Of a stretch of DNA of 64,000 nt, positions 19,923-35,630 are shown one piece after another. Source of the DNA: Candidatus Latescibacterota bacterium (GTDB lineage Bacteria > Latescibacterota > UBA2968 > UBA8231); contig OZ242214.1 of assembly GCA_965206595.1 (NCBI GenBank), positions 6,880,001-6,944,000 of the forward strand, given 5' to 3'. The notes beneath the pieces are model-generated. The model ran no database searches. It was not told the origin of the DNA and worked only from the letters and a program-made list of their open reading frames with translations. Numbering within the stretch: position 1 is the first letter of the stretch; each line of letters begins with the position of its first letter. Both the position numbers and the translations under genes were made by a program.

Positions 19923-19934
19923 AACGAGGAAGCC

Positions 19935-20434: not shown

Positions 20435-20435
20435 G

Positions 20436-20567: not shown

Positions 20568-21346
20568 TGATCGACCTCGACGCGCTCCGAAAACTGTTAT
20601 GCGAGCGTCTTTGCGAAGACGTAGGAGTAGACCAACGCCCTGATGGCGCACTGATGCTGCGCACGCGCTTCGAGTTTCCCGATGGAGACCGCTACCCGAT
20701 TCACCTTGCCGAAGTGGGATCGGGCGGGTTCCGGCTGTCGGACCGCGGACACACACTCATGCACCTCAGCTACGAGCACGACGTGGACGCATTCCTGGAC
20801 GGGACGCGGGGGATGCTCCTTGAACGCATCATGGGTGAGACCGGGCTTCAATGGGACGGGGGCGCCTTCTGCCTCGAATCGTCCCCCGAACGGCTGCCGG
20901 AAGCCATCTTCTCCTTTGGGCAGGCGCTGACCAGGGTCTACGACCTGACGTTGCTGTCCCGCTCGAACGTCGGTTCCACGTTCTACGACGATTTGACCGA
21001 TCTCCTTTTCAGCCTGGTGGACGAAGCCAAAATCGAACAGGACTACCAACCGCAAGTGCCTAACGCCGAAGTCTACCCCGTGGATTACCGCATCGAAGGC
21101 AAGGGGGAGGTTCCTTTGTTCCTTTACGGGGTACCGAACCGTGACAAGGCACGCCTGACCACGATCATGCTGTCGCACTTCCACCGGCACGACCTCCGTT
21201 TCGAATCCATTCTCGTGTTCGAGGGTCAGGCAGAAATTCCGAGGCAGGATCTGGCGAGACTATCCGACGTCGGCGGGGACATGATATCATCTCTGGCCTC
21301 GCGAGAAGATTTCAACCGAAAGGTCTTACAGCGTGTCGCGGCGTGA
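20567..21346 (+). CDS. DUF1828 domain protein
   Basis: 'TRFEFPDGD..PIHL', 'FRLSDRGHTL', C-terminal 'YPVDYRI' nuclease-like segment. Confidence 0.75.
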   Translation: MIDLDALRKLLCERLCEDVGVDQRPDGALMLRTRFEFPDGDRYPIHLAEVGSGGFRLSDRGHTLMHLSYEHDVDAFLDGTRGMLLERIMGETGLQWDGGAFCLESSPERLPEAIFSFGQALTRVYDLTLLSRSNVGSTFYDDLTDLLFSLVDEAKIEQDYQPQVPNAEVYPVDYRIEGKGEVPLFLYGVPNRDKARLTTIMLSHFHRHDLRFESILVFEGQAEIPRQDLARLSDVGGDMISSLASREDFNRKVLQRVAA

Positions 21347-21426
21347 ACTGCTGAAGCACTGCGGGCCACGGGGGTGGCGGTTTGATCGAGGTGATCGGCG
21401 ACCGCTAATTCCCCGATGAGGTAAGG

Positions 21427-21645
21427 ATGAAATTGAAAGTTGTGATCCATCAAGCGGAAGAGGGCGGATACTGGGCGGAAGTACCCTCTATCCCCGGATG
21501 TGCGACTCAAGGGGAGTCCTTTGAAGAGTTGCTGACCAACCTCTACGAGGCCGTGGAAGGTTGCCTGTCCGCCGAGGTTGGGGACGGCTCTAACACGGAA
21601 AAAGCCAAGGTCATCGAAATTGCGATGAATGAAGATCAAAAATGA
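21427..21645 (+). CDS. hicB: HicB-family antitoxin (copy 2); no hicA
   Basis: Near-identical to 19935..20096 over the first 48 codons. Confidence 0.88.
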   Translation: MKLKVVIHQAEEGGYWAEVPSIPGCATQGESFEELLTNLYEAVEGCLSAEVGDGSNTEKAKVIEIAMNEDQK

Positions 21646-22481
21646 GTCCAAACTTAAAACAAGCTGCCCTGATTTATGACTTCGACGGCACGCTTGCTCC
21701 CGGGAACATGCAGGAACACAGCTTCATTCCTTCTGTAGACATGACAAAGAATGACTTCTGGGACGAAGTCAAAGCATGTTCAAAGCAGGAAGACGCAGAT
21801 GAAATACTCGTTTACATGCGTCTGATGATTGAAAAAGCTAAACAGAAATGCCTTGAGATCACGAAAGAGGATCTCCGCAAACATGGTGGGGAGATTCCAC
21901 TATTCGAGGGACTCGAAGACAAGAGTTGATTCGATAGGATCAGCTGTCATGCCGCAACTAACGGTTTAGGACTTGAGCACTACATTATTTCTTCCGGACT
22001 TGAGGAAATGATCCGTGGCTGTTCCATTTTCCAGGTATTCCGTCATGTGTTTGCTTCCAAGTTCATCTATGAAGGCGACATTGCAAGATGGCCGGGAGCG
22101 GCGATCAACTACACGTCCAAAACCCAATATCTTTTCCGCATCAATAAGGGCATCGATAACCAATGGGATAACGACACTATAAACAAGTACATGGCGGAGC
22201 ACGAGCGTCCAATACCCTTCCAGCGAATGATTTTTGTAGGCGACGGCTTCACGGACATACCAGCAATGAAGATGATGACTCACCAAGGAGGGAACGCAAT
22301 AGCGGTATATGATCCCGAATGTAAGGACCAGGACCTTGGCAAGATTCATCAGCTGATCGCAGACAATCGCGTTGACTTCGTGGCACCAGCAGATTATTCC
22401 GAGAATTCGCAGATGGAAATAATCGTCAAAGGGATCCTGAGCCGGATCGGGCGTTCGATAGAGATTGGCGGGCCGCAATAG
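21642..22481 (+). pseudogene. HAD-like hydrolase interrupted by an in-frame TGA at 21927-21929
   Basis: 'IYDFDGTL' motif I; frame continues after TGA as 'FDRIS...EHYIISSG' into ORF 22008..22481 with 'FVGDGFTD' motif IV; TGA sits where Trp is expected. Confidence 0.85.
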
Positions 22482-22663
22482 CGCTCAACGCAGATATGGG
22501 GTGGGTCAGGACAAGGGACCCGAAAAATCCGAAGACCTCACATCAGGCCGTCATGGTAGGGGACGACGGAGCCCGATTGAGGCCGCAGAGATGCGCAGCA
22601 ACCTCGACCGTGAACTCCGGCTCGTCTGTTGTGACAAGGACGACCGGTACGGAAAGAAGATCA

Positions 22664-22954
22664 ATGAACAGAGATGAAGTCCTGAACGTGCTCCGAACGC
22701 ACAAAGCAGCTCTTGCGCAACGTTTTGGCGTCACTGGACTCGCCCTATTCGGTTCCTTCGCCCGCGACCGAGCTACGGACGACAGCGACGTTGACATCTT
22801 AGTTCGCTTTGACAAGCCGGCAACTTCATACGCCTACTTCGGCACCCAGTTCTACTTGGAGGACCTGCTGGGGCATCCAGTCGATCTGGTAACTGACAAA
22901 GCACTGCGGGCGGAGATACGGCCCTACGTGGAGCGGGAAATCGTCAATGTCTGA
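22664..22954 (+). CDS. mntA: MNT/MntA nucleotidyltransferase antitoxin (copy 2)
   Basis: 'LFGSFARDRATDDSDVDILV'; paralog of 19531..19821. Confidence 0.9.
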   Translation: MNRDEVLNVLRTHKAALAQRFGVTGLALFGSFARDRATDDSDVDILVRFDKPATSYAYFGTQFYLEDLLGHPVDLVTDKALRAEIRPYVEREIVNV

Positions 22955-23318
22955 CGCCAACCAAGAATCGCGTAGCTGGCAGCTCTATATTCAGGACATG
23001 ATCGAATTCAGCGGCAAGGTTCTGTCTTATACGGAGGGACTGGACCAAAAGCGGTTCATCGCGGGGACGCTCGTCTACGATGCCACTTTGCGCAATCTGG
23101 AACTGATCGGCGAGGCGGCGACCCACGTCCCGGGTGAGGTGCGTGAGGCTCATCCGGAAATTCAATGGCGCCGCATTATAGCAACGCGGAATCGCCTGGC
23201 TCACAGTTACCTGGGTATGGACGACGACGTTATCTGGGACATCATCCAGACTGATGTCCCGAACCTGCTACCGGCATTGCGCAACGTGTTGAACACGATA
23301 AACGAGGAATCCGCATAA
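22947..23318 (+). CDS. hepT: HepT/DUF86 HEPN RNase toxin
   Basis: 'RNLELIGEA', Rx4H 'RNRLAHSY'; overlaps mntA and abuts mod. Confidence 0.9.
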   Translation: MSDANQESRSWQLYIQDMIEFSGKVLSYTEGLDQKRFIAGTLVYDATLRNLELIGEAATHVPGEVREAHPEIQWRRIIATRNRLAHSYLGMDDDVIWDIIQTDVPNLLPALRNVLNTINEESA

Positions 23319-26267
23319 ATGGCGAAACGGAAATCGACCAAGACCGTTGAAAGTCTCCGGCACCAGGAGGCATCGCGGAAGAACATCCCCACGGCCGAGT
23401 ACCAGGCGGTGATGGCGGAGGACGACCGCAACCCGATCAGCGTCGCGTACGAGCGCCGCAACCCGGATCTCGACCCGCAGCTCGTCTGGCGCGGCAAGGA
23501 CGAGCAGAGCAGGTCGGACCTGGTGGTGCAGGCGCCGCCGCTGTTCATCCAGGAGAAGGTGCAACCGAAGGTGCTGATCGACGATCTGCGGCAGCGGAGC
23601 AAGGAGACGGAGGCGGAAAAGGGCAACGGCGACGGCACCCAGACCGACCTGTTCGCCGACTTCAACGGGCTGCCGGCGGGGGACGCGCAGACGGAGTTCT
23701 ACCAGCACGACGCCAACTGGTCGAACCGGATGATTCTCGGGGACAGCCTGCAGGTGATGGCCTCCCTGGCGGAGCGGGAGGGGCTGCGCGGCAAGGTGCA
23801 GTGCATCTACATCGACCCGCCCTACGGCATCAAGTTCAACTCCAACTTTCAGTGGTCAACGACAAGCCGCGACGTCAAGGACGGGAACGCCGGCCACATT
23901 ACGCGCGAGCCCGAGCAGGTGAAGGCGTTCCGAGATACGTGGCGGGATGGGATTCACTCGTATCTGACGTATCTGCGGGATCGGCTGACGGTGGCGCGGG
24001 ATCTGTTGACGGAGAGCGGGTCGATTTTCGTGCAGATTGGGGACGAGAATGTGCATCGGGTGCGGGCGTTGATGGACGAGATTTTCAGTGAAGAGAATTT
24101 TCACGCGCAAATTGCAGTACGAAAGGCATCACCACTTGGCGGGGCTGGATTGGTTGGAGTGAATGATTATCTCCTTTGGTACAACAAAAACAAAGCAGTA
24201 GCAAAGTTTCGTCGAACCTTCAAGCTATTAGATGCTCAGGGAGATCGGTATTATAACATCGTCGAAACCAACGACGGCCAGCGGCGTTCCATAAGCTCAG
24301 AAGAATTCGCAAATTTAGGGTTGCTGCCCAGCACGGCGCGTCTTATTACGTCATCTGCTCTCGTTTCTTCCGGTCTTACTCCGTCGTGCGTTTTTGACGT
24401 TGATTTTCAGAGCAAGAGGTACAAGCCATCAACTGGCAGGAGTTGGCGAACCAATCCTACTGGTATGGAAAGACTAAAGTTAGCGGGTAGACTCATTTCG
24501 ACAGGTAATACTCTTCGCTATGTAGCGTACTTTGACGACTTTCCCTACGCCACAATTGACAACTCATGGGGGGACACTGGCGGCGGAGCTATCGTTGGAC
24601 AAAAAATATATATTGTCCAAACGCCGAACAAAATACTGGGAAGATGTATCCTAATGACCACCGACCCCGGCGACATCGTCCTCGACCCCACCTGCGGCTC
24701 CGGCACCACCGCGTACGTCGCCGAGCAGTGGGGCCGCCGCTGGATCACCATCGACACCTCCCGCGTCGCCCTCGCGCTTGCCCGCGCCCGCGTCATGGGT
24801 GCGCGCTATCCCTACTACCTGCTCGCCGACAGCCGCGACGGCCGGGTCAAGGAAGCCGAGATTTCCCGCAAGGCACCCTCGGAAGCGCCCACGTACAACG
24901 ACATCCGCCAAGGCTTCGTTTACGAGCGCGTCCCCCACATCACCCTCAAATCCATCGCCAACAACGCCGAGATCGATGTGATCTGGGAGAAGTTCCAGGA
25001 AACCCTGGAGCCGCTGCGGGCGGAGCTGAACGCCGCGCTCAACCGCTCCTATGAAGAATGGGAGATTCCCCGCGAACCGGGCGACCCCTGGTCCGCCAAG
25101 GCCACCGAGGCGTGGGACAAGCTCCAGGCCGCTCGCACGGACACCGAGAAATCCGCAGCGCTGCGCGTGTTGAACAAGGAGCTGGGCCGGAAGTACGCGC
25201 TGGAGGACGTGCCCTGCAGGCCCCGCGATCCGTGGGAACCCGGCGCGACTGATCTGCACCGCCGCTGGTGGGAACAGCGCATCGCCCGGCAGAAGGAGAT
25301 CGACGCCTCCATCGCCGCCAAGGCGGACTACGAATACCTCTACGACAAGCCCTATGAGGACAACAAGAAAGTCCGCGTCGCCGGCCCCTTCACCGTGGAG
25401 AGCCTGTCGCCGCACCGCCTGCTCGGTGTCAATGAGAACGACGAGCTCATCGACAACATCGCCGAAGCCAGCCTCGGGTACGGCGAAAAGCAGGACTTCG
25501 CCGGGATGATCCTCGACAACCTGAAAACCTCCGGCGTCCAGCAGGCGCACAAGGAGGACCGCATCGCCTTCTCAGGGATCAGACCCTGGCCAGGCGACCT
25601 CGTCTGCGCCGAGGGAACCTACGTCGAGGGCAACGGCGACTCCGCCCCCCAGAGACGCGCCGGCATCTTCATCGGCCCGGAGTTCGGCACCGTCTCGCGC
25701 CCCGACCTCGTGTCGGCGGTGCGCGAGGCGGCCGACGCCGACTTCGACGTGCTGGTCGCCTGCGCCTTCAACTACGACGCCCACGCCTCGGAGTTCAGCA
25801 AGCTCGGCCGCGTCCCGGTCCTCAAGGCGCGCATGAACGCCGACCTCCACATGGCCGACGACCTCAAGAACACCGGCAAGGGCAACCTCTTCGTCATCTT
25901 CGGCGAGCCGGACATCGACCTCCTCGACGCCGGGAACGGACAGATCCAGGTCAAGGTCAACGGCGTCGACGTGTTCCATCCCAACACCGGCGAAATCCGC
26001 AGCGACAACGCCGACGGCATCGCCTGCTGGTTCGTCGACAGCGACTACAACGAGGAAAGCTTCTTCGTCCGCCACGCCTACTTCCTCGGCGCCAACGATC
26101 CCTACAAGGCGCTGCGGACGACGCTGAAGGCCGAGATCAACCAGGAAGCCTGGGAGACCCTGCACAGCGACACCTCCCGTCCTTTCGCCAGGCCGGCGTC
26201 GGGCCGGATTGCGGTGAAGGTGATCAACCACCTCGGGGACGAGGTGATGAAGGTGTTCCGGGTGTGA
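23319..26267 (+). CDS. mod: Type III-like Mod subunit, N6-adenine/N4-cytosine DNA methyltransferase (beta class)
   Basis: Motif IV 'IDPPYG', then TRD, then motif I 'VLDPTCGSGTT'; C-terminal 'IAVKVINHLGDEVMKVF'. Confidence 0.93.
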   Translation: MAKRKSTKTVESLRHQEASRKNIPTAEYQAVMAEDDRNPISVAYERRNPDLDPQLVWRGKDEQSRSDLVVQAPPLFIQEKVQPKVLIDDLRQRSKETEAEKGNGDGTQTDLFADFNGLPAGDAQTEFYQHDANWSNRMILGDSLQVMASLAEREGLRGKVQCIYIDPPYGIKFNSNFQWSTTSRDVKDGNAGHITREPEQVKAFRDTWRDGIHSYLTYLRDRLTVARDLLTESGSIFVQIGDENVHRVRALMDEIFSEENFHAQIAVRKASPLGGAGLVGVNDYLLWYNKNKAVAKFRRTFKLLDAQGDRYYNIVETNDGQRRSISSEEFANLGLLPSTARLITSSALVSSGLTPSCVFDVDFQSKRYKPSTGRSWRTNPTGMERLKLAGRLISTGNTLRYVAYFDDFPYATIDNSWGDTGGGAIVGQKIYIVQTPNKILGRCILMTTDPGDIVLDPTCGSGTTAYVAEQWGRRWITIDTSRVALALARARVMGARYPYYLLADSRDGRVKEAEISRKAPSEAPTYNDIRQGFVYERVPHITLKSIANNAEIDVIWEKFQETLEPLRAELNAALNRSYEEWEIPREPGDPWSAKATEAWDKLQAARTDTEKSAALRVLNKELGRKYALEDVPCRPRDPWEPGATDLHRRWWEQRIARQKEIDASIAAKADYEYLYDKPYEDNKKVRVAGPFTVESLSPHRLLGVNENDELIDNIAEASLGYGEKQDFAGMILDNLKTSGVQQAHKEDRIAFSGIRPWPGDLVCAEGTYVEGNGDSAPQRRAGIFIGPEFGTVSRPDLVSAVREAADADFDVLVACAFNYDAHASEFSKLGRVPVLKARMNADLHMADDLKNTGKGNLFVIFGEPDIDLLDAGNGQIQVKVNGVDVFHPNTGEIRSDNADGIACWFVDSDYNEESFFVRHAYFLGANDPYKALRTTLKAEINQEAWETLHSDTSRPFARPASGRIAVKVINHLGDEVMKVFRV
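24085..24655 (+). other. Low-GC target recognition domain (TRD) segment within mod
   Basis: Abrupt switch to AT-rich codons between the conserved methyltransferase blocks. Confidence 0.8.
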
Positions 26268-26332
26268 GGGCTTAAGTTTTCAAATTGTTCGAATAACCTG
26301 ATGGCAAGTGATACTTGTTCGGAGATTACGCA

Positions 26333-29110
26333 ATGACATTCAACCGAAGTGCGGCTGAACGCTGGCACTTGGAGGTGCCGGGGGCGCGGTGGTTCAAGGC
26401 CGATTTGCATATCCACACGATTGACGACTTACCGGGCGACAGGGCAAAGGTCCCGGACGGCGTCGACGGTCGCCGACCAGTCTCGGACGAGGCGCTCATT
26501 TCTTATGCTCGGAAATTCCTGCAAAGTGCGGCCGCTATGGGCGTCCACGTGATCGGTGTCACACCTCATTCCCCGCGCCTCGAAACTGACGACGAGACGA
26601 GCGCGGTCTGGCGGATAGTGGAAGAGTGGAACACCGGCGTTGACGATGACGGCAAGCTGTTTCGGGACAAGATATATGCGGTGTTTCCCGGCTTTGAGCC
26701 TGCGCTCAAACAGGGCAAACGAGGGCTGCATTTGCTGTTCCTTTTTGATCCTGAGATCGGGCGCGACAGCTATTTGAAGGCGTTCAATCTCGCCATGGGT
26801 GGCGTGTCTCCATGGCGCAACAAGGAGCTTCAAATTTCCAGCAAAAGCGCCGACGAGGTTTTTCGCGAACTCCGTGAGTTCCATGGGCAAGAGTGTCCCT
26901 TAGACCGGGATGGGAAGCCTCAATGGAGCTACATTGCGCTCGCACCCCATATAGATACCGATAAAGGCCTCCTCGGAGAACTCAATGCGCAGGTACTGAA
27001 AAACTTCCCGCACAGCGAAGTGACGGGCCTTGAGCTAGGCGACGAGAAACTTCCCGAGGACACCATAAAAAACCGGGATTGGCTGGCAGATGGGATGGCC
27101 GCAAACAATCTGGCGTTCTTCCACGGCAGCGACGCCTACTCAGTTGAGGAGATCGGAAGGCGTCACACATGGCTCAAACTGGCTAGTCCTAGAATCGAAG
27201 CGTTACGTCAAGCGTTCATCGCCAGCGATTCACGGATACGCATCGGATACGAACGGGACGCAGACGGTACTCTCACTGAGATTGGGCATCCGCCCGACGT
27301 AACGGTGAATGAGCGCCCCTGGCTCAAATCCGTCACTGTTGCTGGAGGGGCTTCTTTCTTTAACACGACGAACAAAGATGTAGATGGGACACGCTTCGAC
27401 TTGAATCCAGACCTTACCTGCATCATAGGCGGAAGCATGACGGGCAAGAGCACACTACTGGACGGTCTGCGTTTGTACATCGATGCTCCATTGCCACAGG
27501 ACGACGGAATCAAGAAGCAGGTCGAAGCTCGTGGCCGACAACGTTTTCTCGGGGGTTCAGCCGCAGTCAATCTCGACTGCCCGGGACAAGATCCAACTGC
27601 ATCGCACCACCAGCAGTGGCCCGCGGTCTTCTACGCGCAGAACGAGTTGCAGCGGCTTGCCCAGGAACCAGAAGCAGTTGAAGAGCTTCTCGCCCGACTC
27701 GTGCCGTCGGAGATGCACGGCATTCAGGCGCGTCAACCACAGTTGAGCGCGGCCGACAGGGAACTCGACCGTGCGACGAAGCGCCTCGCGAAACTGGATG
27801 AAGACCTCACGGATGCCGAGCAGGCTTTCGAACGGACGGAAAAAGCCGCTAAGGAACTTGCAGCATTCTCGCAGGCCGGTGTAGAGAAGCTGCACCAAGC
27901 CTCACGCGACCTTCGCCGGTGGCAGGAATCCGCTGAAGTTTCCTGTGCACCGGAAGCCGATCTGGATCGCCTGCTGAATGGGGTGGACGCCTTCGAGTTA
28001 CCGGAAATCGACGACCGTCTAGCCGAGTTATTGAAAGATGCCGACGCTGACGCGGCGCGCTACGAGGACTTGCAGGCTCGTTGGAACCGCATCCTCGAGC
28101 ACGTTCGATCGGCGAATCGGGAGCTGGCATCGTGGAAAGTAGAAACACAGTCGATCGTCGATGCGTTGGAAGTACAAGAGCAACGGGTTCGCACGGAAGT
28201 CGATCGCGCGCTCGCCGCTCACGGACTCGACGGGGCGCGGATCGAGGAATTCAAGGCACTGAACCGGCAGGCATCGCTCTTGGAGAGCTATAAGGCGAAT
28301 CTCGATCAGGTGCGCAACAAGCTTATTACCGGAGAGCGCTCTTTCGAGGGACACCTCACGGAACGGCAAAGCCTCGTGGAAGAGCAACGGGCCGCCTTCG
28401 ACCGTGTGATCAAGACCATCCTCGCCGAATTCGAGGGCCGGATTTCGCCCCGTCGAGTCGACGACGGAAGTCGCGGGCCTCTCGACCGCTTTCTTAAACA
28501 TCTCGGCCAGAGAGGGATCACCCGATGGTGGAACGAACTGGACGACCAACACAGACCCTCACCGAGGGAATTGCTCGATCACTTGCACGAGGACACGTTG
28601 AAAGAGGTCGGTATGAGTGATGCCGTGCAAACGACGTTTCGGGAACAATTAACTCGAACCAGACAACGGGACCTGGCCGCAATTCGCTGCTCCGACCGCT
28701 ATCTCCTGGAGCTCAGGATGGACGACGGAAGCCACCGGCAGTTGGACGACCTTTCCGGCGGACAACGGGTGAGTCTTCTTCTTTCGCTGCTGCTAGAGAC
28801 AAGCGACGAACGTCCCTTAGTCATCGACCAACCGGAGGACGAGTTGGACAACCGGTTTCTCTTCGACACGGTCCTCCCCGCGCTCAAGCGGCTCAAGGGA
28901 CGCCGGCAGATCATCGTTGCGACGCACAACGCGAACATCGTCGTCAACGGCGACGCGGATCAGGTGATTCAGCTCGAGGCGACGGCGAACCGGGGCCGTG
29001 TGGCGTGTGCGGGGGCCATCGAGGAGCCAGCCGTCCGAGACGCCATCGTTGGGACCGTTGACGGCGGTGACGAAGCGTTTCGCCTCCGCCGGCTGAAGTA
29101 CGGGTTCTGA
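26333..29110 (+). CDS. PHP phosphoesterase + SMC/ABC-type ATPase (TrlF family; Ppl-like defence protein)
   Basis: 'KADLHIHT', 'HGSDAY', Walker A 'GGSMTGKST', coiled coil, 'LSGGQ', 'VIDQPEDELDN', 'ATHN'. Confidence 0.85.
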   Translation: MTFNRSAAERWHLEVPGARWFKADLHIHTIDDLPGDRAKVPDGVDGRRPVSDEALISYARKFLQSAAAMGVHVIGVTPHSPRLETDDETSAVWRIVEEWNTGVDDDGKLFRDKIYAVFPGFEPALKQGKRGLHLLFLFDPEIGRDSYLKAFNLAMGGVSPWRNKELQISSKSADEVFRELREFHGQECPLDRDGKPQWSYIALAPHIDTDKGLLGELNAQVLKNFPHSEVTGLELGDEKLPEDTIKNRDWLADGMAANNLAFFHGSDAYSVEEIGRRHTWLKLASPRIEALRQAFIASDSRIRIGYERDADGTLTEIGHPPDVTVNERPWLKSVTVAGGASFFNTTNKDVDGTRFDLNPDLTCIIGGSMTGKSTLLDGLRLYIDAPLPQDDGIKKQVEARGRQRFLGGSAAVNLDCPGQDPTASHHQQWPAVFYAQNELQRLAQEPEAVEELLARLVPSEMHGIQARQPQLSAADRELDRATKRLAKLDEDLTDAEQAFERTEKAAKELAAFSQAGVEKLHQASRDLRRWQESAEVSCAPEADLDRLLNGVDAFELPEIDDRLAELLKDADADAARYEDLQARWNRILEHVRSANRELASWKVETQSIVDALEVQEQRVRTEVDRALAAHGLDGARIEEFKALNRQASLLESYKANLDQVRNKLITGERSFEGHLTERQSLVEEQRAAFDRVIKTILAEFEGRISPRRVDDGSRGPLDRFLKHLGQRGITRWWNELDDQHRPSPRELLDHLHEDTLKEVGMSDAVQTTFREQLTRTRQRDLAAIRCSDRYLLELRMDDGSHRQLDDLSGGQRVSLLLSLLLETSDERPLVIDQPEDELDNRFLFDTVLPALKRLKGRRQIIVATHNANIVVNGDADQVIQLEATANRGRVACAGAIEEPAVRDAIVGTVDGGDEAFRLRRLKYGF

Positions 29111-29121
29111 GGGCTTTCGAG

Positions 29122-30315
29122 ATGGAGTGGTTGGATATTCTCAAGCATGTCGAGGCGGGCGAAAGCAGGAAAACCGAGTTCAAACGGGGGCTTGGCGACT
29201 TGTCGGCAATCGGCAGGGCCATTTGTGCCTTCGCAAACACCGGGGGCGGCGTCATCATCCTGGGCGTGGACAACTCCCAGGAAATCGTAGGCGTCAGAGA
29301 AGAGTCCGAAAAGGTACAGGAGCGTCTGACGGCGTTCCTTCAGACCGGTTGCAGCGCGCCCGTTTCCGCGCAAAGCGGACGTCATGAAGACCCCAACGGC
29401 TGGGTACACTGGGTTGAAGTTCCCCGCCAGCGAGGATTCGAACCGCTTCGCTACGATGGCCGGGTGTGGGTTCGCCGGGAACGCAGCAGCGTTGAACCAT
29501 CGCCCAGCGAACTGCTGGAACTCTACAACGCCTTCGGTTACATCATGACGGAAGAACGCCCGATCCAGGCTGCCACGCCGGGACACATCGATCTCCAAAG
29601 CTTTCGCGAGTATCTCCGAGAGCTCGGACTCGATACCGAGGATCAACCGCAGCCCGATGCCGAGGACGATCTCCGCAACCGCGGGGTGATAGCCGAGCTC
29701 GGGGGAGCACTGCACCCGACGGTTTATGGTGTGCTGGCGTTCGGAAAAGAGCCGCAGCGCTATCCGCAGACGCGCAGTTTCCGGATAGAATGCGTCGCAT
29801 ATGAAGGTGACGACCGGGCTTCGAATACACTGCAACTGGCTGATGTCACAGGTCGTTTGGACGAGCAGGTACGACGAGCGGTCGGGTGGTTCCAAGGCCT
29901 CGGGAGATTCGAGTCGTATCGAGGTCTGATCAGGGAAGACCGTTGGCTCCTGCCGGAAGCAGCGCTCAGGGAAGCCTTGGTAAACGCGGTCGTGCACAGG
30001 GACTATGCCATCATCGGCTCGAATGTGTTGCTTGAGGTCTACGACCGTCACGTCGACGTCACAAGCCCGGGAACACTGCCCAACCACATGACAGTCGAGA
30101 GCGTTCGCGCCGGCGCTCATCCGCGATCCCGGAACGAGTCAATGGCGAACTACATGCTTGAAAAAGGATTCATGGAAAAGCGGGGCAGAGGCTGGCCCCT
30201 GATGCGCAAGGCAATGCTGGAGTTCAATGAGACCGAGCCCGAAATATTGCAGGACGACGGAGGCGGGTTCGTCAGAGTGAGGTTCCATCTCGACTCGCCC
30301 GAAGAACAAACATGA
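29122..30315 (+). CDS. Schlafen/AlbA_2 DNA-binding domain + HATPase_c_4 protein
   Basis: 'GESRKTEFK', 'ICAFANTGGG.IILGV', 'LREALVNAVVHRDY', 'SPG', 'RN...GFMEKRGRG'. Confidence 0.9.
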   Translation: MEWLDILKHVEAGESRKTEFKRGLGDLSAIGRAICAFANTGGGVIILGVDNSQEIVGVREESEKVQERLTAFLQTGCSAPVSAQSGRHEDPNGWVHWVEVPRQRGFEPLRYDGRVWVRRERSSVEPSPSELLELYNAFGYIMTEERPIQAATPGHIDLQSFREYLRELGLDTEDQPQPDAEDDLRNRGVIAELGGALHPTVYGVLAFGKEPQRYPQTRSFRIECVAYEGDDRASNTLQLADVTGRLDEQVRRAVGWFQGLGRFESYRGLIREDRWLLPEAALREALVNAVVHRDYAIIGSNVLLEVYDRHVDVTSPGTLPNHMTVESVRAGAHPRSRNESMANYMLEKGFMEKRGRGWPLMRKAMLEFNETEPEILQDDGGGFVRVRFHLDSPEEQT

Positions 30316-30355
30316 ACTCCAACACCGCTAACAGCACGTTCCGCCAGTTGATGGG

Positions 30356-31348
30356 CAGCGCATCGCCCGCCAGAAGGAGATCGACGCCTCCATCGCCGCC
30401 AAGGCCGACTACGAATACCTCTACGACAAGCCCTACGAAGACAACAAGAAGGTCCGCGTCGCCGGCCCCTTCACCGTGGAAAGCCTGTCGCCGCACCGCC
30501 TGCTCGGTGTCAATGAGAACGACGAGCTCATCGACAACATCGCCGAAGCCAGCCTCGGGTACGGGCAAAAGCAGGACTTCGCCGGGATGATCCTCGACAA
30601 CCTGAAAACCTCCGGCGTCCAGCAGGCGCACAAGGAGGACCGCATCGCCTTCTCAGGGATCAGACCCTGGCCAGGCGACCTCGTCTGCGCCGAGGGAACC
30701 TACGTCGAGGGCAACGGCGACTCCGCCCCCCAGAGACGCGCCGGCATCTTCATCGGCCCGGAGTTCGGCACCGTCTCGCGCCCCGACCTCGTGTCGGCGG
30801 TGCGCGAGGCGGCCGACGCCGACTTCGACGTGCTGGTCGCCTGCGCCTTCAACTACGACGCCCACGCCTCGGAGTTCAGCAAGCTCGGCCGCGTCCCGGT
30901 CCTCAAGGCGCGCATGAACGCCGACCTCCACATGGCCGACGACCTCAAGAACACCGGCAAGGGCAACCTCTTCGTCATCTTCGGCGAGCCGGACATCGAC
31001 CTCCTCGACGCCGGGAACGGACAGATCCAGGTCAAGGTCAACGGCGTCGACGTGTTCCACCCCAACACCGGCGAAATCCGCAGCGACAACGCCGACGGCA
31101 TCGCCTGCTGGTTCGTCGACAGCGACTACAACGAGGAAAGCTTCTTCGTCCGCCACGCCTACTTCCTCGGCGCCAACGATCCCTACAAGGCGCTGCGGAC
31201 GACGCTGAAGGCCGAGATCAACCAGGAAGCCTGGGAGACCCTGCACAGCGACACCTCCCGGCGGTTCGCCAAGCCGGCGTCCGGCCGGATTGCCGTGAAG
31301 GTGATCAACCACCTCGGGGACGAGGTGATGAAGGTGTTCCGGGTGTGA
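30356..31348 (+). pseudogene. 993-bp direct repeat of the mod 3' third (25275..26267); lacks methyltransferase motifs
   Basis: Aligned by eye: about 15 substitutions, mostly synonymous and clustered at both ends; no indels seen. Confidence 0.95.
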
Positions 31349-31401
31349 GAATCGGATACGGGCGATTCCCATTCACCCCTGAACACTGAGAAGAGTTTTC
31401 C

Positions 31402-32748
31402 ATGGAAAACCAAATCATACCGACAGCAGGTAAACACTACATCTTCCCACCGGAGCGCTTCCATGGATATATCCAGGTAGGTGGGCAGCGCATAGAGATC
31501 AGTCTATCAGCGAGTGTGGATCGATCCGGGCGTCTGTCACTGTTGGATGTGGATCCTATCAAGGATGTGGCCGGCGGACTCAAACTCATGGAGTCGCTTA
31601 ACGGCTCGGGAAACACTGTCGAGGAATTTCAGCTGGAATGTGAAGGTTCTGACGGCAAAAAATTAACAAGTGATCGAGCGTATCTCGCCTCCGGTCGCCA
31701 AAAATTAACTCCCATCGACTGTAGCCACAAGGAAAGCGATCGAAGATATCTTGTCGAATTCAACATTCAGCTACGGACTGTGGAAGCATGCCTGACAATG
31801 AAAGCGAGCGAAACAAGCGATCTTCCGCAAATCACCCTTAGCTTACTCGGTTTTGAATCCTTTAGCCCTCTGTGTGCTACTACTAGATTCGGAACGGTCA
31901 AGGCTTGGGAGGTTCGCGCTGACCTAGGGAACGAAATTACAGGCAAGCTTGCAATTCAAGGCCAAAAAGGTCTGTCCTCAAACTGGCATACAGACGCGAA
32001 GCGGCTTTTGGACGACATACGACTCGTGCTTGGTTTCGCCCGTGGGGCACCTCTTCGCGTCCCAATCATGAAGTTTTTTAGCGGAGATTGTGGGGAATGT
32101 ACATTCTACGATGTGGAGGGATGTCCGCCATATATGCCTCCGTTCCACCATCTCAATCTCGATCCGATATTCTCGACGGCAATCAAACACACTGACATAA
32201 TCGCGGAGCATCGGGACGTCCTGGAGACGACGATTGGTTGGTTGCTGGTGAAGACGGACTATGAAGAGATCCGCTTCATGTCAGGAATGACGGCACTGGA
32301 AACTGCAGTCTCGAAATGCCTCGATGACAAAGAAATGTTCGTACTGAAGAAAAGCAAATTCAGAAAACTAAAATCAAGAATCAGCGAATTCGTCAAGCAG
32401 CAAAACGACCTCGATCTCAACGAAAACGACTACGTGGCACTTGATAAAAAACTGCCCGAACTAAATAGGAACACCTTCAAACACAACCTTATACTATTGC
32501 TTACCCGGTGGGGTATCTCACGCTCTGATATTGACGACCATGCGCTGTCCCGTCTTCTGAAACTAAGGAACGAAATCGTTCATCAGGGTGCCACTCCGAA
32601 AGTTGAATGCCTCAGGGAGAACGATGAGATCCTTCGCGAGATTCTTGTTAGGCTCGTGCTCGCCATAATTCGCTTCGACGGTACCTACGAAAGCTACGTT
32701 GGAGGACCTCATTCCAGGAAATTTCCCGTCTGCGAGCCCTCTGCGTGA
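31402..32748 (+). CDS. ApeA-like protein with C-terminal HEPN domain
   Basis: 'RFMSGMTALE', Rx4H 'LRNEIVHQG'; low GC; 448 aa. Confidence 0.7.
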   Translation: MENQIIPTAGKHYIFPPERFHGYIQVGGQRIEISLSASVDRSGRLSLLDVDPIKDVAGGLKLMESLNGSGNTVEEFQLECEGSDGKKLTSDRAYLASGRQKLTPIDCSHKESDRRYLVEFNIQLRTVEACLTMKASETSDLPQITLSLLGFESFSPLCATTRFGTVKAWEVRADLGNEITGKLAIQGQKGLSSNWHTDAKRLLDDIRLVLGFARGAPLRVPIMKFFSGDCGECTFYDVEGCPPYMPPFHHLNLDPIFSTAIKHTDIIAEHRDVLETTIGWLLVKTDYEEIRFMSGMTALETAVSKCLDDKEMFVLKKSKFRKLKSRISEFVKQQNDLDLNENDYVALDKKLPELNRNTFKHNLILLLTRWGISRSDIDDHALSRLLKLRNEIVHQGATPKVECLRENDEILREILVRLVLAIIRFDGTYESYVGGPHSRKFPVCEPSA

Positions 32749-32923
32749 TAGCGGTAGGAAGAAAAAAGTGGGTTTTACAACTCTGGCAGTCTCGGAGGTG
32801 CTCCGGATCCTCGCGATGAAAAAAATCCGCGCCACCCGATTCGAGTCTGTCTTTCGTCAAGCTGGTGCCGAGTCTCCCGAAAATCTGGACCTTTGAAGAC
32901 CTGCCTGAAGACATCGACGATGA

Positions 32924-32975
32924 GTGATAAAGGTGTTCCGGGTGTGGGGAGCGGATATCGGCGATCGCCATCACT
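32924..32975 (+). repeat. Third, short remnant of the mod 3' end plus its downstream flank
   Basis: GTGAT(A/G)AAGGTGTTCCGGGTGTG matches the mod end at 22/23 nt; following 'gcggatatcggcgatcgccatcac' resembles 31351-31377 'atcggatacgggcgattcccattcac'. Confidence 0.8.
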
Positions 32976-33000
32976 CACTGATTACCGGGAAGAGGTTCCC

Positions 33001-33231
33001 ATGAAAAAACAAATCATCCAATACACATCGCCCATTGACGCACTGATTGCAGTGACCAAGCGGTTGAGTACCTACGAAAATCAGCAACAGATGGATTCGG
33101 AAGAGTTCTTTGACCATTACAGTCGGGGACAACTTTCCGACGACGCAGTATTCGTCGACTGGGCCAATGACTACCGCCACTATTTGCAACTCCGTCAAAA
33201 ACTAGCGGAGATAGTGCCCGATGTTGCATGA
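33001..33231 (+). CDS. TumA-like antitoxin
   Basis: 'MKKQIIQYTSPIDALIAV.KRLS.YE....MDSEEFF..YS.G.L.DD..FVDWANDYRHYL'; GAGG RBS. Confidence 0.7.
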   Translation: MKKQIIQYTSPIDALIAVTKRLSTYENQQQMDSEEFFDHYSRGQLSDDAVFVDWANDYRHYLQLRQKLAEIVPDVA

Positions 33232-33310
33232 GGTTCTGGCCGCCTACCTGGATAAGGTGGAGCAGACCATTCTCCTGCGAACCCGGAAGACGCCTCATGG
33301 CCAGCGCTGA
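33221..33310 (+). pseudogene. 5' remnant of a TumE/DUF6516-like toxin
   Basis: 'MLHEVLAAYLDKVEQTIL' overlapping the antitoxin stop, then truncated. Confidence 0.55.
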
Positions 33311-34667
33311 CCAACTCAAGGCATTGCTGAAGTCGCACTTGGAAGGGGACGACGATCGCTTCTTTTCCGTCGCCATGCAGGTCGCCGCCCACGAAGCGAA
33401 ACTGGGGCACGGGAAGCTCGCCGAAGAACTGCGAACCCTGATCGACGAGGCCAAGGGACGGCGCGGCGTGGATTCGGTGGTGCCGATTGCCCGCCCGCGC
33501 GGCGAGTTGGCAAACCTTCTGGAAGCGTCCTACCCGAAGGCTCGGCTGGGAGAGATGGTTCTGAGTGATGCTCTCGCGGATCAGATTCAGCGGGTCCTTC
33601 GTGAGCAACGCTATGCCGGACGGATCGTGGAGCATGGCCTGGCGCCCAGGCGCAAGCTGCTTCTGACGGGTCCTCCTGGTACGGGCAAGACGCTGACTGG
33701 GTTCGTTCTGGCCGGGGAGCTCGGTCTTCCTCTCCTTCAGGTCCGACTCGACGGCCTTATCACCAAGTTCATGGGCGAAACCGCAGCCCAGCTGCGGCAG
33801 ATATTCGACGCCACCAGCAAAACTCGGGGTATCTACTTTTTTGACGAGTTTGACGCCATTGGTTCGCAACGCGGACTAACAAACGATGTGGGCGAAATCC
33901 GGAGAATATTGAACAGCTTTCTTCAAATCATGGCGTTCGTTGCCCGGCTCTCGGACGTCGCGCCGGACGGAACCAGCGCGCAGGTGACGATGGGCGTGCT
34001 GAACGGGACGCGGCGCAACTCGCACACGGACCCGGAGCCCATTGAGCCGGGAGAGATCTACGAGCTGCACGTGGACCTGGACGCCACGGCGTGGAGATTC
34101 GAGCGCGGGCACAGGATCCGGCTCTCCATTAGCAGCGCGGACTTTCCCAACCTGTGGCCGACCCCGTACCGCGGAACGAACCGCGTATACCGGGACAGCG
34201 GACGCGAGTCATACCTGGAACTGCCGGTCGTGCCGACCCGGGAAGCCCCCGCTGGAGAACTGCCGCCGGACGAAATGGAGTACGAGCCTTCCGCGGCGCC
34301 GCGACGGTACCCGGAGGCTTCGCCCCGCGTGGTTCCCTGGGAGATTGCTCAGGACGTCATGAGGGACCGGACCGGTCTCAGGTTGCACCTCGTCAACGAA
34401 AGCAGGGCCAGCGCCGGCATGACCGTAAAGATGGAGTCCAGGCTGGAGGTGTGGACAAACAACCGCGACCCCGCGGACACTACGGCAACAGGCCGGCACT
34501 TCAGGACCATCACCCGCACGGACGGCGTGATCAACGTGGACACCTCCGCGAACGTCCGCAGCACTCGGGACGCTTTTCACGTCTCCATCGAGCTGGACGT
34601 TCGCATCGATGGCCTGACGCATCACCGGCGCAGTTGGGTCGATTCGTTCAACAGGGAACTGCTTTGA
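33297..34667 (+). pseudogene. In-frame chimera: truncated IetA-like AAA ATPase (to about 33929) fused to a CocE/NonD (PepX_C) hydrolase C-terminus
   Basis: 'MASADQLKALLKSH...GPPGTGKT...FFDEFD...ILNSFLQ' then abruptly 'FVARLSDVAPDG...GHRIRLSISSADFPNLWPTP'. Confidence 0.8.
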
Positions 34668-35035
34668 TCGGCGAAAGCTCTTCCGGGCAGCTGCAGGAGG
34701 GAGACAGGCTGCCCTACGAGATTCCGTTTCCGCTCGGGATGGACCATCTTGCGAGGATGTCCGGCGAGCCCGGCCACGAAGCGATAATGGGCGTGATATA
34801 CCCCCGGATGCCCGACTTCGACTCGCAGCCGGGGAACTACAGGATGCAGCTCATACAGAGGGTGAAGGACTACCTGAGGGCCAGGGAATATTCGGCCGAG
34901 ACGTTTGAGAAGTTCGCCCTGCGCGGAACCCCGTCTACCATACTGGTCGACCGCAAGGGAGTTCTCCGGGACGTCTCTTTCGGCCAGACGGGCCACTTGG
35001 ACGGGATGATCCAGAGGATCCTCGCCGAGGACTGA
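34668..35035 (+). pseudogene. C-terminal remnant of a TlpA/redoxin-like protein
   Basis: 'IPFPLGMD...TFEKFALRGTPSTILVDRKG.LR...FG'; no start codon or CxxC region. Confidence 0.6.
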
Positions 35036-35157
35036 ATCAGCAGGCCGGGACGAGCGCAAGGTGCCAGATACCCGGCACTGGTCATCGGTCGGATTTCATC
35101 CCGGTCTGGCTCCCTGGTGGAACTACGGTCGACAACTGATGGGAGGTCGGAATCGCC

Positions 35158-35630
35158 ATGAACAACACTGAAAAATTCCTCTTCGACCTGCAGGGCTTCA
35201 TCGTCGTCCGCGAGTTCCTCTCGCAGCGTGAAGTCAAAGCCCTCAACGACGCTTTCGACGCCAACTGGGACAAGCGCCGCGAACCCGAACCGCGACCCCA
35301 GCGGCAACATGGCCGGGCACGACTTGGGTAGAGCACCAGGAGGTCGTTCACCAAGTGCCTCTGAAGGCCGGCGACATGGTCATCTTCAGCGAGAACACCT
35401 TGCACGGCACTCTGCCGTGGCAGGCAGACCACGACCGCCGCGCCCTGCTCTACCGGTACACGCCGAAGTACCTGCACTACGACGGCGGCACGTACGAGGT
35501 GACCCAGCCGGAATGGGTGGCGGAATTGACCGAGGCACAGCAGGCGGTGCTCGAGTCCCCCTACATCTACCATCACCCACTTATCGAACTGGATGGCGAA
35601 ACAGTGGTCCGCCCACGCCGCGAGGATTAG
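35158..35630 (+). pseudogene. PhyH-family dioxygenase with internal deletion
   Basis: 5' 'MNNTEKFLFDLQGFIVV' and 3' 'LKAGDMVIFSENTLHGTLPW...RRALLYRY'; HxD region missing. Confidence 0.8.

Follow-up and report, generated by a model that had tools for sequence, protein, structure and literature searches.

Integrons grow as one-way arrays of co-directional cassettes beside a fixed element, the older cassettes being pushed back, and classical genomic islands integrate into the 3′ end of a gene and supply a replacement copy of that end. The assembly of defence islands with neither an integrase nor a transposon is still largely unexplained. Several described systems come close. At the T6SS orphan immunity genes of Vibrio cholerae, new modules enter beside a conserved anchor and no integrase is involved (Kirchberger et al., 2017; PMC5361080). 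That paper proposes homology-facilitated illegitimate recombination, its authors draw a parallel with integrons, and it cites the orphan 3′ fragments behind rhs/cdiA as parallel displacement arrays. Insertion with long target duplication was described with restriction-modification (R-M) genes as the insert and host DNA as the target, the inserted DNA being shorter than 20 kb, devoid of mobility genes and set between long direct repeats that range from tens to hundreds of bp (Furuta, Abe and Kobayashi, 2010; PMC2853133). The enterobacterial immigration control region is an integrase-free defence hotspot between conserved genes, and prrC, located inside the EcoprrI Type IC locus, is an accessory defence gene in an R-M locus (EcoSal Plus review, PMC12707154).

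Here, we describe an array in a 64,000-nt stretch of a Candidatus Latescibacterota genome (contig OZ242214.1; hereafter the window). The window and its relatives offer a readable scar record: R-M genes would act as the anchor, new systems would be added next to it, and older ones would move outward, retaining a piece of the anchor.

The R-M locus and its cargo

By its profile matches, the locus belongs to the BPTD_3080-type Type III-like R-M systems, with predicted methylation and ATP-dependent restriction activity. The res product reaches 1376 bits against NF046055 (cut-off 800) over model positions 1-969 of 970. The mod product is matched along its length by PADLOC MTase_III (PDLC03632, 1393 bits) and has a Pfam N6_N4_Mtase match (114.7 bits); among PDB entries EcoP15I Mod and the Mod subunits 6k0w and 4zcf align only with residues 120-293/294. 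The alignment shows a C-terminal module of very high conservation (residues 653-982), which corresponds to the first copy of a long repeat (25275-26267) and retains 77-96% protein identity in records whose labels cover well over ten phyla. Strand and order of res and mod are as in relatives, and 5.5 kb of cargo separates the pair. The array that follows mod is real, and its layers are listed in Table 1.

Table 1. Features of the R-M locus and the array (positions within the window)
Feature	Position	Strand	Remarks
res	14728-17823	+	BPTD_3080-family restriction endonuclease (helicase + endonuclease domains); NF046055, Pfam ResIII + RE_endonuc
HTH/Peptidase_M78 protein	17901-18986, start uncertain	+	res-mod slot; Pfam, NCBIfam weak
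DUF4411 protein	18983-19534	+	res-mod slot; Pfam, NCBIfam weak
MntA-like nucleotidyltransferase	19483-19821	+	older copy of 22496-22954; Pfam
Truncated HicB-like ORF	19935-20096	+	older copy of 21427-21645; Pfam
mod 5′ stub, codons 1 to ~90	20170-20436	+	1-nt insertion, frameshift
DUF1828 protein	20564-21346	+	res-mod slot; Pfam/NCBIfam
HicB-like	21427-21645	+	res-mod slot; Pfam/NCBIfam
Two unnamed ORFs	within 20564-23318	+	res-mod slot
MntA	22496-22954	+	res-mod slot; Pfam/NCBIfam
HepT	22947-23318	+	res-mod slot; Pfam/NCBIfam
Intact mod, 982 aa	23319-26267	+	Type III-like N6/N4 methyltransferase
Cassette 1: TrlF-family AAA-like ATPase	26315-29110	+	NF045780, 384 bits (cut-off 350)
Cassette 1: AlbA_2 + HATPase_c_4 protein	29122-30315	+	
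Joint, post-AlbA spacer to mod codon ~648-653	30316-30355	+	in-frame stop at 30329
Copy 2, mod 3′ stub, codons 653-982	30356-31348	+	open, no start codon of its own
Cassette 2: 53-nt mod-TumA-type spacer, then 448-aa HEPN-like gene (31402-32748)	31349-32748	+	
Relic layer	32910-33000	+	14 nt of small-ORF start region, last 8 mod codons (32924-32947), spacer
Cassette 3: TumA antitoxin-like gene	33001-33231	+	NF045776, 134 bits (cut-off 100)
Cassette 3: IetA-like AAA ATPase	33228 to ~33930	+	cut at ~residue 235; PADLOC IetA, PDC-M44A
Right border: CocE/NonD-type hydrolase C-terminal fragment	33928-34667	+	Pfam PepX_C, TIGR00976

Between res and mod, self-comparison gave 78% and 88% identity of the older copies in 19483-20096 to the MntA and HicB-like genes further on, and the DUF1828 protein is 93-94% identical in two relatives, G087 and G090. 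The mod 5′ stub in this slot, absent from the first-pass annotation, is 92% identical to 23315-23584; its homology begins ~5 nt before the ATG, and its protein matches mod residues 8-90.

The labels first given to the downstream cargo were partly right. The profiles gave a TrlF-family ATPase, an AlbA_2/HATPase_c_4 protein and TumA. The HEPN-like gene, called ApeA-like, has only a sub-threshold HEPN_RiboL-PSP match and gave no PADLOC match; its first ~6 codons resemble the start of TumA. The gene after TumA had been read as TumE (= DUF6516), a label we reject in favour of a cut IetA-like ATPase, to which the CocE/NonD-type fragment is fused in frame. From this right border on, the DNA matches G001, a genome of the same genus, at 95-97%, yet 375 kb from the mod of G001.

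Six-frame searches of the genome with PF00589, PF00239, PF00665 and PF01609 found no match in window positions 1-61,000, in agreement with the first reading that the array stretch holds neither an integrase nor a transposase. The sole match to these four families in the window is DDE_Tnp_1 at 61240-61878, and of the 13 genome-wide matches to PF00589 none falls in the window, the nearest lying 65 kb before its start. No inverted repeat pair of at least 30 nt occurs in 20000-37000, and Rfam gave no match at E ≤ 0.1 over 13000-38000. An integron is rejected, IntI being absent and the general inverted-repeat and Rfam searches having yielded no attC. A site-specific island in the 3′ end of a gene does not describe the array either, given that there is no integrase and that the repeats extend from 24 nt to 993 nt.

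A mosaic repeat and relics

Self-BLAST and base-by-base comparison align 25275-26267 with 30356-31348 over 993 bp with 15 mismatches and no indel; with two gaps, the match extends weakly leftward to 25259/30341. The left edge falls at codon 653 of mod and the right edge 1 nt beyond its stop codon. As the first-pass annotation had noted, the differences are mostly synonymous and gather near the edges: 11 are synonymous third-position changes, the four further nucleotides alter three codons (E723Q, P955R, R958K), and by place eight lie in 25289-25485, one at 25979 and six in 26180-26213. In simulation, a difference-free gap of the length observed has P = 5e-4. At the edges the copies are 96.3% and 93.3% identical to each other, set against 94-95% and 88-94% for either copy and the alleles of other genomes, so that between-copy identity there was rated equal to or below that to foreign alleles. 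The central ~690 nt are 99.9% identical between copies and at most 96.9% to any other genome. This mosaic, with edges diverged like foreign alleles and a homogenised centre, is consistent with gene conversion.

Over their full length the two copies are each other's closest match (98.5%, against at most 96.0% to any other genome), as would be expected if the second had arisen by duplication in place, through unequal crossing-over or replication slippage, with the cargo between and behind exchanged later. We nevertheless hold such a duplication to be very unlikely: the divergence is uneven, the edges differing like alleles of other genera around the near-identical centre; the spacer to the left of the joint is the post-AlbA one, which in two other genomes also stands before a mod stub; and relatives often carry short stubs beside other cargo.

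Copy 2 is probably a relic. An in-frame stop lies 27 nt upstream (30329), the first in-frame start is an internal GTG at 30476, and P955R is unique to this copy, proline being present in 82 of 87 homologues. At 0.07, the dN/dS between the copies is judged not to fall below the values for orthologues from different genomes (0.10-0.12), and the ratio thus records divergence before the copies were joined. The first suggestion, that both are functional alleles, is not supported.

That the mod 3′ end occurs three times proved correct for the two 993-bp copies, and a third copy does exist, but little of it is mod. The stretch 32924-33017 is 78-80% identical to 31325-31418 over 94 nt, of which only the first ~24 nt are mod (the last 8 codons, with the stop TGA changed to TGG); the remainder consists of the 53-nt mod-TumA spacer and the first 17 nt of the following gene. 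The small ORF whose start region heads this layer is intact in L036 and G012, and by sequence comparison the 8-codon relic before TumA is one shared event in the window and these two relatives.

Four public runs were examined through short contigs at ≥90% likeness. Summed depth was 1400-5200 on mod and 5-50 on cargo, which indicates many other mod alleles in the same samples. Contigs bridge mod to TrlF over 26243-26770 (with 0 differences in run X12) and cover 31320-33012 in all four runs. If the assembler had switched genomes inside the repeat, the array would not lie on one molecule; a depth on mod ~100 times that on cargo in all four runs marks a community-wide repeat, and contigs were unable to link both sides of the 993-bp copies. 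Such an artefact seems to us most improbable. The unique left joint, from AlbA spacer to mod codon ~650, is not producible by a switch within shared sequence, both outer flanks match G001 at 95-98%, and the same architecture is found in G087 and G090. The depths of TrlF, the HEPN gene and upstream unique genes also covary over the runs (~18-27, 6-8, 3-6 and 9-18), a weak argument from per-contig figures.

Recurrence in relatives and a candidate mechanism

Where both genes lie on one contig, relatives share the layout of res, 0-4 kb, mod and then variable genes. The res-mod gap could be measured in 69 loci, those in which the end of res and the start of mod were both located: 29 have ≤150 nt, 7 have 150-600 nt and 33 have >600 nt. 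The first co-directional ORF behind mod, which usually begins 2-100 nt past the stop codon, falls into 57 clusters among 81 loci; this slot is hypervariable. The cargo is of defence type and includes IetA with S8 protease, AAA_15/21 ATPases, UvrD helicases, SIR2, reverse transcriptases, a SMODS cyclase and patatin pair, a HipA-like kinase and HTH-M78 proteins. When 39 cargo ORFs in 11 relatives, out of 109 listed ORFs, were tested for integrase/resolvase families, none matched; two of the 39 are DDE transposase pieces.

The first-pass expectation of mod fragments in related genomes was borne out. A 22-aa motif of the mod tail recurs a second or third time, co-directionally, behind mod in 8 of the 79 distinct loci with at least 3 kb of downstream DNA. 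In a phylum sample of 168 genomes, 61 have a match, and 10 of these 61 (including G000) carry the full C-terminal module and, 1.7-19 kb behind it, one or more partial copies, which number at least four in G087. Relatives with a single mod 3′ end exist, none of them with the downstream context of the window. Stubs abut truncated neighbours, and G012 shows an in-frame fusion of a GmrSD_N fragment to mod. Stubs of the mod N-terminus and of the res 5′ end occur in L035, L041, L050 and L097, and a res 3′ stub follows a DUF1828 cassette in G087.

Lengths of the 3′ stubs vary widely, with left edges 8, 19, 19, 26, 26, 30, ~40, ~52, ~77, 110, 167 and 330 codons from the end. Such spread speaks against a fixed att site and favours recombination anchored in homology, with the far joint made illegitimately. 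If a site-specific recombinase from another locus used the mod 3′ end as its attachment site and left stubs as the att repeats of tandem islands, the classical island pattern of 3′-end integration with a replacement copy would result, and several stubs do begin near residue 293-303 of the 330-residue module. Even so, we consider such a recombinase highly improbable: no tyrosine recombinase, resolvase or rve match was found in the window or in the 39 cargo ORFs tested, similar stub lengths go with shared flanks and hence common descent, and 5′ stubs and res stubs are incompatible with one att site.

The TrlF-AlbA pair also lies behind mod in G087 (73% and 81% amino acid identity), G090 has AlbA with a TrlF relic, and in both genomes a mod stub follows. 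The first ~25 nt of the joint in the window resemble their post-AlbA spacer. From the sequences, the AlbA-to-stub joint is one shared event in G087 and G090, at mod codon ~906, as against ~650 in the window. Some stubs are thus inherited, and the independent events are fewer than the stubs.

Such bracketing raises the question of whether cassettes enclosed by mod tails are themselves mobile. The C-terminal module of mod would then be a shared docking sequence through which repeat-bracketed defence cassettes move between unrelated bacteria by host homologous recombination, looping out as circles by repeat-repeat recombination and re-entering wherever a mod is resident, through one RecA-dependent crossover. 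If so, a selfish R-M system and its plasmids would carry an integron counterpart that works without a recombinase. The idea corresponds to the integron-like accordion of the first-pass annotation, in which the 5.08-kb unit between the long repeats could excise or amplify, and overlaps with the scar-record explanation, except that the repeat-flanked cassette is the unit of transfer. In the window, G087 and G090 alike, mod 3′ sequence stands on both sides of TrlF-AlbA, and a second AlbA copy in G087 also has mod fragments on either side; the HEPN gene is bracketed by 94-nt mod-tail repeats and a 64-aa ORF in L036 by ~24-nt ones; and the homogenisation in the middle of the 993-bp copies is compatible with recombination between the two. 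Insertion, amplification and release have been discussed for repeat-flanked R-M units (Furuta et al., 2010; PMC2853133). On the other side, the joint in G087 and G090 is shared by descent while that in the window lies at another codon, which does not speak for independent insertions of a single defined cassette, and a non-replicating circle requires a route between cells. Docking of mobile cassettes appears unlikely to us, both as a general property of the module and as the history of this array.

The explanation that we favour, with somewhat better than even confidence, is that defence genes were added again and again, with no recombinase, to a BPTD_3080-type Type III-like R-M locus, and that the array is the record of the scars. 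What is observed is the anatomy, its recurrence among relatives, the variable joints, the lack of recombinases and the mosaic divergence; how the DNA recombined, in what order and by which route it entered, we infer as follows. Incoming DNA bearing the same R-M family, from another strain, species or plasmid, would find homology in the conserved res or mod. One end of the exchange would be homologous, inside res or mod, and the other, having no partner, would be joined illegitimately, often within the resident mod. The product would be an intact mod with new cargo directly behind its stop, followed by the truncated old mod with the old cargo. This process is named homology-facilitated illegitimate recombination, or sequential displacement, and the same outcome would be reached if a circular DNA with a mod segment entered by a single crossover. 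Recurrent events would stack the layers mod / TrlF-AlbA / 330-codon stub / HEPN gene / 8-codon stub / TumA and cut IetA, and mirror-image events would leave 5′ stubs upstream. Short stubs would decay, and gene conversion would keep the long one close in sequence to the live gene.

Capture by homologous recombination with the mod C-terminus as landing pad, the original proposal, thus survives in part. Arrays of this kind recur in the R-M family and lack an integrase, the cargo is hypervariable, 3′ stubs are present and TrlF-AlbA is bracketed. The landing pad is not the C-terminus alone, for mod 5′, res 5′ and res 3′ stubs occur as well, and the left joints of the stubs, which differ in position, are not creatable by pure homologous recombination and are illegitimate. 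Vehicles exist: 38 plasmid records carry the family, and 12 of these are typed as conjugative. Transfer of a whole mod together with its cassette is unsupported, the N-terminal 593 residues of mod being only 66-69% identical between the window and G087/G090, compared with 73-81% for TrlF-AlbA. Against the scar-record explanation stands the start of the cargo within a few nt of the mod stop in nearly all loci; joints made illegitimately at random would be expected to look less tidy, and the explanation has to call on selection for compact operons or on a more specific process.

Taken together, the scars in the window and in other bacteria suggest that ordinary recombination can enlarge a defence island with no integrase involved. 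If general, this would explain the clustering of defence genes around R-M systems and offer a way to order acquisitions in time, and truncated copies of a conserved defence gene would become a search handle for adjoining unknown defence genes. A widely shared R-M gene could then promote gene flow between distant bacteria, besides blocking it.

Comparison with known systems

Like integrons, the array is one-way and co-directional and grows beside a fixed element; unlike them, it has no IntI, no attC-like inverted repeats were found, the cassettes are often multi-gene, and the repeats are pieces of a protein gene.

As with prrC in EcoprrI, non-R-M defence genes lie co-directionally inside or directly behind an R-M operon, although the cargo here is highly diverse rather than one dedicated partner, and any functional coupling to the R-M genes would be putative. 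The immigration control region likewise has variable defence content between anchors, mutual replacement and no mobilising activity in the locus. Its anchors are housekeeping genes of one bacterial family, whereas here R-M anchors travel between phyla with the island and truncated anchor copies mark the layers.

Long target duplication shares with the locus an R-M setting, repeats that match one target sequence, and the amplification and release proposed for it (PMC2853133). A 4,088-bp insert between 993-bp repeats and a 1,505-bp insert between 94-bp repeats agree with its dimensions (an insert <20 kb, repeats >30 bp), and neither insert holds a mobility gene. The inserts are TrlF-AlbA and the HEPN-like gene instead of R and M genes. 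Thus the roles are exchanged, the R-M gene being the target and other defence genes the insert, and at their edges the repeats have the divergence of separate alleles, unlike a fresh duplication.

With the T6SS and Rhs arrays the locus has in common a conserved homology anchor, an old 3′ end pushed downstream with its partner genes, and no integrase. Both the window and its relatives have an intact conserved gene followed by truncated 3′ copies with different downstream genes. Far-side joints are variable and illegitimate, with truncated neighbours (GmrSD_N-mod in G012, IetA-CocE in the window), and neither the window nor the relatives' cargo tested contains a dedicated recombinase. By analogy, the array may have formed by homology-facilitated illegitimate recombination. 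It differs in that the anchor is an R-M methylase (and res) instead of a toxin gene, and in that the displaced genes are unrelated defence systems and not cognate immunity genes, so that the reason for their retention differs from that in T6SS. Moreover, the stubs of this locus occur in both polarities and in two slots, and its family spans many phyla.

Gene content of the locus

The locus is built around res and mod, the endonuclease and methyltransferase genes of a BPTD_3080-type, Type III-like restriction-modification (R-M) system, with defence genes (the cargo) between or behind them. Solved Type III Mod subunits match only the N-terminal methylase part of mod. Elsewhere in the genome (G000:C1:3309532-3311892) lies the gene for another methylase with this architecture, a distant one with 44% identity in the N-terminal part and 29% in the C-terminal module.

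Features of the res-mod locus and its cassette array, in window coordinates
Feature	Position	Content	Remarks
res	14728-17823	BPTD_3080-family restriction endonuclease	NF046055, 1376 bits (cut-off 800)
res-mod slot		HTH/M78, DUF4411, MntA, HicB-like, DUF1828, second HicB-like, MntA-HepT	5.5 kb; small defence or toxin-antitoxin-type genes
mod 5' stub	20170-20436	truncated mod copy in the res-mod slot	92% identity with the 5' end of the live mod; 1-nt insertion
mod	23319-26267	Type III methyltransferase model matched along full length	
Copy 1	25275-26267	3' end of intact mod	
Directly behind mod		TrlF-family ATPase, then AlbA_2/HATPase_c_4 protein, then 993-bp stub	
Copy 2	30356-31348	993-bp stub of the mod 3' end	
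Behind copy 2		448-aa protein, then 8-codon mod relic	weak HEPN match only
Array end		TumA and IetA-like AAA ATPase (cut at about residue 235) fused to a CocE/NonD hydrolase C-terminal fragment	fused gene 33228-34667, fusion in frame

The cargo labels proposed in the first-pass annotation stood for the TrlF-family ATPase, the AlbA_2/HATPase_c_4 protein and TumA, while the HEPN label came down to a weak match. The TumE label had to be dropped: TumE proper is DUF6516 according to the available text of PMC10584680, this domain is absent from the array, and the gene after TumA encodes an IetA-like AAA ATPase. From 33928 onwards the flank matches a genome of the same genus (G001) at 95-97%, but lies 375 kb from mod there. 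The right border is therefore another illegitimate joint, with a large rearrangement or deletion ending the island.

Upstream of res, on the minus strand at 2794-9079, lie genes for an SNF2-type helicase (weak DrmD/DpdE-like matches), a PLD-family protein and a 432-aa protein, which are 96-98% identical in G001; this set may be a further defence system. On the other side, a tandem array with a period of ~126 bp (46598-47946, copies 68-77% identical) falls within a 690-aa open reading frame (ORF; 46223-48295).

The absence of an integrase or transposase from the array was borne out by six-frame searches of the whole genome, in which tyrosine recombinase, resolvase, rve and DDE_Tnp_1 gave 13, 0, 21 and 88 matches, respectively, and none of these fell in the array. 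Within the window, the four families have a single match, to DDE_Tnp_1, at 61240-61878. Neither inverted repeats of at least 30 nt nor an Rfam match were found in the array region, and a scan for promoters and terminators gave no excess over shuffles.

The mod 3' repeats and the state of copy 2

Self-comparison of the window confirmed the repetition of the mod 3' end, with 25259-26268 matching 30341-31349 at 98.0%. Compared base by base, copies 1 and 2 differ at 15 of 993 positions and have no indels; the repeat begins at mod codon 653 of 982 and ends one base beyond the stop codon. As had been claimed, the differences are mostly synonymous and near the edges. Eleven of the 15 are synonymous third-position changes, the remaining four nucleotides alter three codons (E723Q, P955R and R958K), and the sites cluster with eight in 25289-25485, one at 25979 and six in 26180-26213. 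A 494-nt gap among 15 randomly placed sites arose in 0.05% of simulations. A third copy is also present, but little of it is mod. Over 94 nt, 32924-33017 and 31325-31418 are ~80% identical; the stretch comprises the last eight mod codons (with TGG in place of the stop), followed by a spacer of 53 nt and by 17 nt from the start of the next gene. The octamer GCTGGTGG, the Chi sequence of E. coli, lies at 25264-25271, 4 nt left of the left edge of copy 1. It occurs seven times in the window against ~3 expected, a number reached by 3 of 100 shuffles, and we treat its position as a coincidence, probably due to chance.

It had been proposed that the two long copies are both functional alleles. For copy 2 the evidence does not support this. 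An in-frame stop codon at 30329 lies 27 nt upstream, the first start codon within the copy is an internal GTG at 30476, and the ORF translationally coupled to AlbA (ATG at 30312) enters it in a different frame. In addition, P955R replaces a proline found at that position in 82 of 87 homologues. The dN/dS between the copies (0.07) is uninformative as a functional test, as it is like that between orthologues of different genomes (0.10-0.12). Because of this resemblance, the synonymous excess is the signature of alleles that diverged while both worked, and it is no evidence of a present function of copy 2.

Between copies 1 and 2, identity is 96.3% and 93.3% at the two edges, no higher than that of either copy to alleles from other genera, whereas the central ~690 nt are 99.9% identical to each other and at most 96.9% identical to those of other genomes. 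On these identities, the simplest reading would be two alleles of separate origin whose centre was later homogenised by gene conversion. This would mean that the copies have recombined with each other, though it would not imply excision itself, the step on which an integron-like accordion was hypothesised in which the repeat-flanked 5.08-kb unit would excise or amplify.

The assembly was checked against contigs of four (X12 and X15-X17) of the six public runs with good matches, all six of which are available as short contigs that cannot bridge the 993-bp repeat. Runs with small shares (5-10% of words), labelled sponge, coral, marine or plain metagenome, give no indication of habitat. The summed contig depth at a likeness of at least 90% is 1400-5200 on mod versus 5-50 on the cargo in these runs, figures taken per contig and summed over organisms, which therefore give only a weak hint that many mod alleles coexist in the same samples. 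The high-depth stretches (23272-26475 and 30214-31815) are covered by thousands of contigs at 90-99% likeness. Such coexistence is an assembly risk and at the same time a condition that a model of exchange through mod needs. That this risk produced the array as an artefact is nevertheless highly improbable, since the left joint of the partial copy is unique and cannot result from a genome switch inside shared sequence, and both outer flanks of the array belong to the genus of the window. Contigs bridge mod and TrlF (26243-26770, with no differences in X12) and each of the four runs has contigs over 31320-33012. The AlbA-to-copy-2 joint is absent among the contig pieces listed for X12.

Variable slots and recurrent stubs in relatives

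Conservation is unusually high in the C-terminal 330 residues of mod; a scan of one genome per species gave 591 stretches coding for relatives. The best 80 of these show 77-96% protein identity, and the titles of their records refer to Latescibacterota, Acidobacteriota, Binatia, Firmicutes-type, Proteobacteria, Chloroflexi, Nitrospirota, Armatimonadota, Planctomycetes-type and other lineages. In six genomes (G029, G032, G090, G138, G140 and G145) the module has an in-frame insertion near residue 870, the length of which differs by genome from ~60 to ~145 residues. The res-mod family is also found on plasmids (38 records, 12 typed as conjugative). On one conjugative Pseudomonas plasmid (L124, NZ_CP091148.1) the pair is directly followed by a 3'-5' exonuclease gene, with IS elements flanking.

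In relatives the order of res, mod and then other genes is constant. The gap between res and mod is at most 150 nt in 29 of 69 loci, 150-600 nt in 7 and over 600 nt in 33. The first co-directional ORF behind mod, usually starting less than 100 nt from its stop codon, belongs to 57 sequence clusters in 81 loci. Thus, with stubs recurring as well, relatives have neither a fixed gene content downstream of mod nor a lack of mod fragments. Among 79 distinct loci with 3 kb or more of DNA downstream, a search with the 22-residue tail found further co-directional mod tails after the intact gene in eight (G012, with two, G020, G027, G032, L035, L065, L071 and L105). In a sample of the phylum, 61 of 168 genomes matched the C-terminal module, and 10 of these, that of the window included, have a complete module with partial copies 1.7-19 kb behind it. 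One genome of another family (G087) holds at least four partial copies, and a few genomes have relics only.

Typical defence genes occupy the space between the stubs and behind them. They encode IetA with an S8 protease, SIR2 proteins, reverse transcriptases, a SMODS cyclase with a patatin effector, AAA_15/21 ATPases, UvrD helicases, a HipA-like kinase and HTH-M78 proteins. Of 109 ORFs listed in 11 arrays, 39 were tested, with no match to an integrase or resolvase family and DDE transposase pieces in two.

The left edges of the stubs lie 8, 19, 19, 26, 26, 30, ~40, ~52, ~77, 110, 167 and 330 codons before the stop. Truncated genes often adjoin them, as with a GmrSD_N fragment fused in frame to mod in G012, and older stubs have stops, frameshifts and internal deletions. 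Stubs of the opposite polarity are represented by the mod 5' stub of the window and by 5' fragments of modN or res in L035, L041, L050 and L097; in G087 a res 3' stub (residues 910-1011) directly follows the DUF1828 cassette. Scattered left edges and both polarities are what one-sided homology predicts and are contrary to a site-specific system. In such a process, exchange would begin in the conserved R-M gene and the far end would be joined wherever possible, often within the resident copy.

The same stub edge with the same flanks in several genomes indicates common descent, as for the SIR2-to-stub joint of G020 and G012 and the AlbA-to-stub joint of G087 and G090. For the 8-codon relic that precedes TumA, independent origins were likewise rejected in favour of one event common to the window, L036 and G012; the small ORF before TumA that is intact in the latter two was lost from the window by a ~190-nt deletion. 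With joints inherited by descent, independent events are fewer than stubs.

In G087, mod is followed by TrlF (73% identical), AlbA (81%) and a decayed mod stub, and a second AlbA copy lies between mod fragments. In G090, TrlF is reduced to a relic and is followed by AlbA (77%) and the same decayed stub. The cassette bracketed by mod 3' sequence is thus a stable, inherited form, which may also be a mobile one. The first ~25 nt of the post-AlbA spacer are alike in all three, with the joint at mod codon ~650 in the window versus ~906 in the other two; the likeness of the spacers casts doubt on an interpretation of 30312-30355 as a truncated gene's 5' end (the 'Z gene stub'). Contigs of three of the four runs (X15-X17) carry 39 extra letters at the AlbA end, crossing 30307-30311, with which the AlbA C-terminus ends in a short mod-tail-like motif. 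These would be a fourth mod relic, lost in the strain of the window. Co-transfer of the whole of mod with TrlF-AlbA is not supported, as the N-terminal part of mod is only 66-69% identical. The DUF1828 protein (20564-21346) is 93-94% identical in G087 and G090 (L122 and L123), both of another family, against 83% for the neighbouring res and the same 66-69% for the N-terminal part of mod, which points to recent transfer of this cassette alone.

Comparison with known processes

The comparative evidence supports, in substance, the main idea of an integrase-free accretion of defence genes with mod as its anchor. The array of mod stubs bears on the open question of how defence islands grow. No paper naming the BPTD_3080 R-M family was found, nor one on methylase stubs as marks of layers in defence islands, in searches of openly accessible main texts. 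From the parts of PMC12707154 available, defence hotspots that lie between conserved genes and lack an integrase are known, as are accessory genes within R-M loci.

The array is a variant of an already known kind of process. In the accessible portions of the sources, the closest process described is the sequential displacement of T6SS effector genes, in which a conserved upstream region anchors the incoming DNA and the far end is joined illegitimately, together with the related strings of orphan rhs/cdi 3' ends (PMC5361080). Within R-M biology, the closest is 'insertion with long target duplication', in which long direct repeats of variable length flank units that lack mobility genes. As far as the available text of that source goes, however, the R-M genes are the insert (PMC2853133), whereas in the window the R-M gene is the target.
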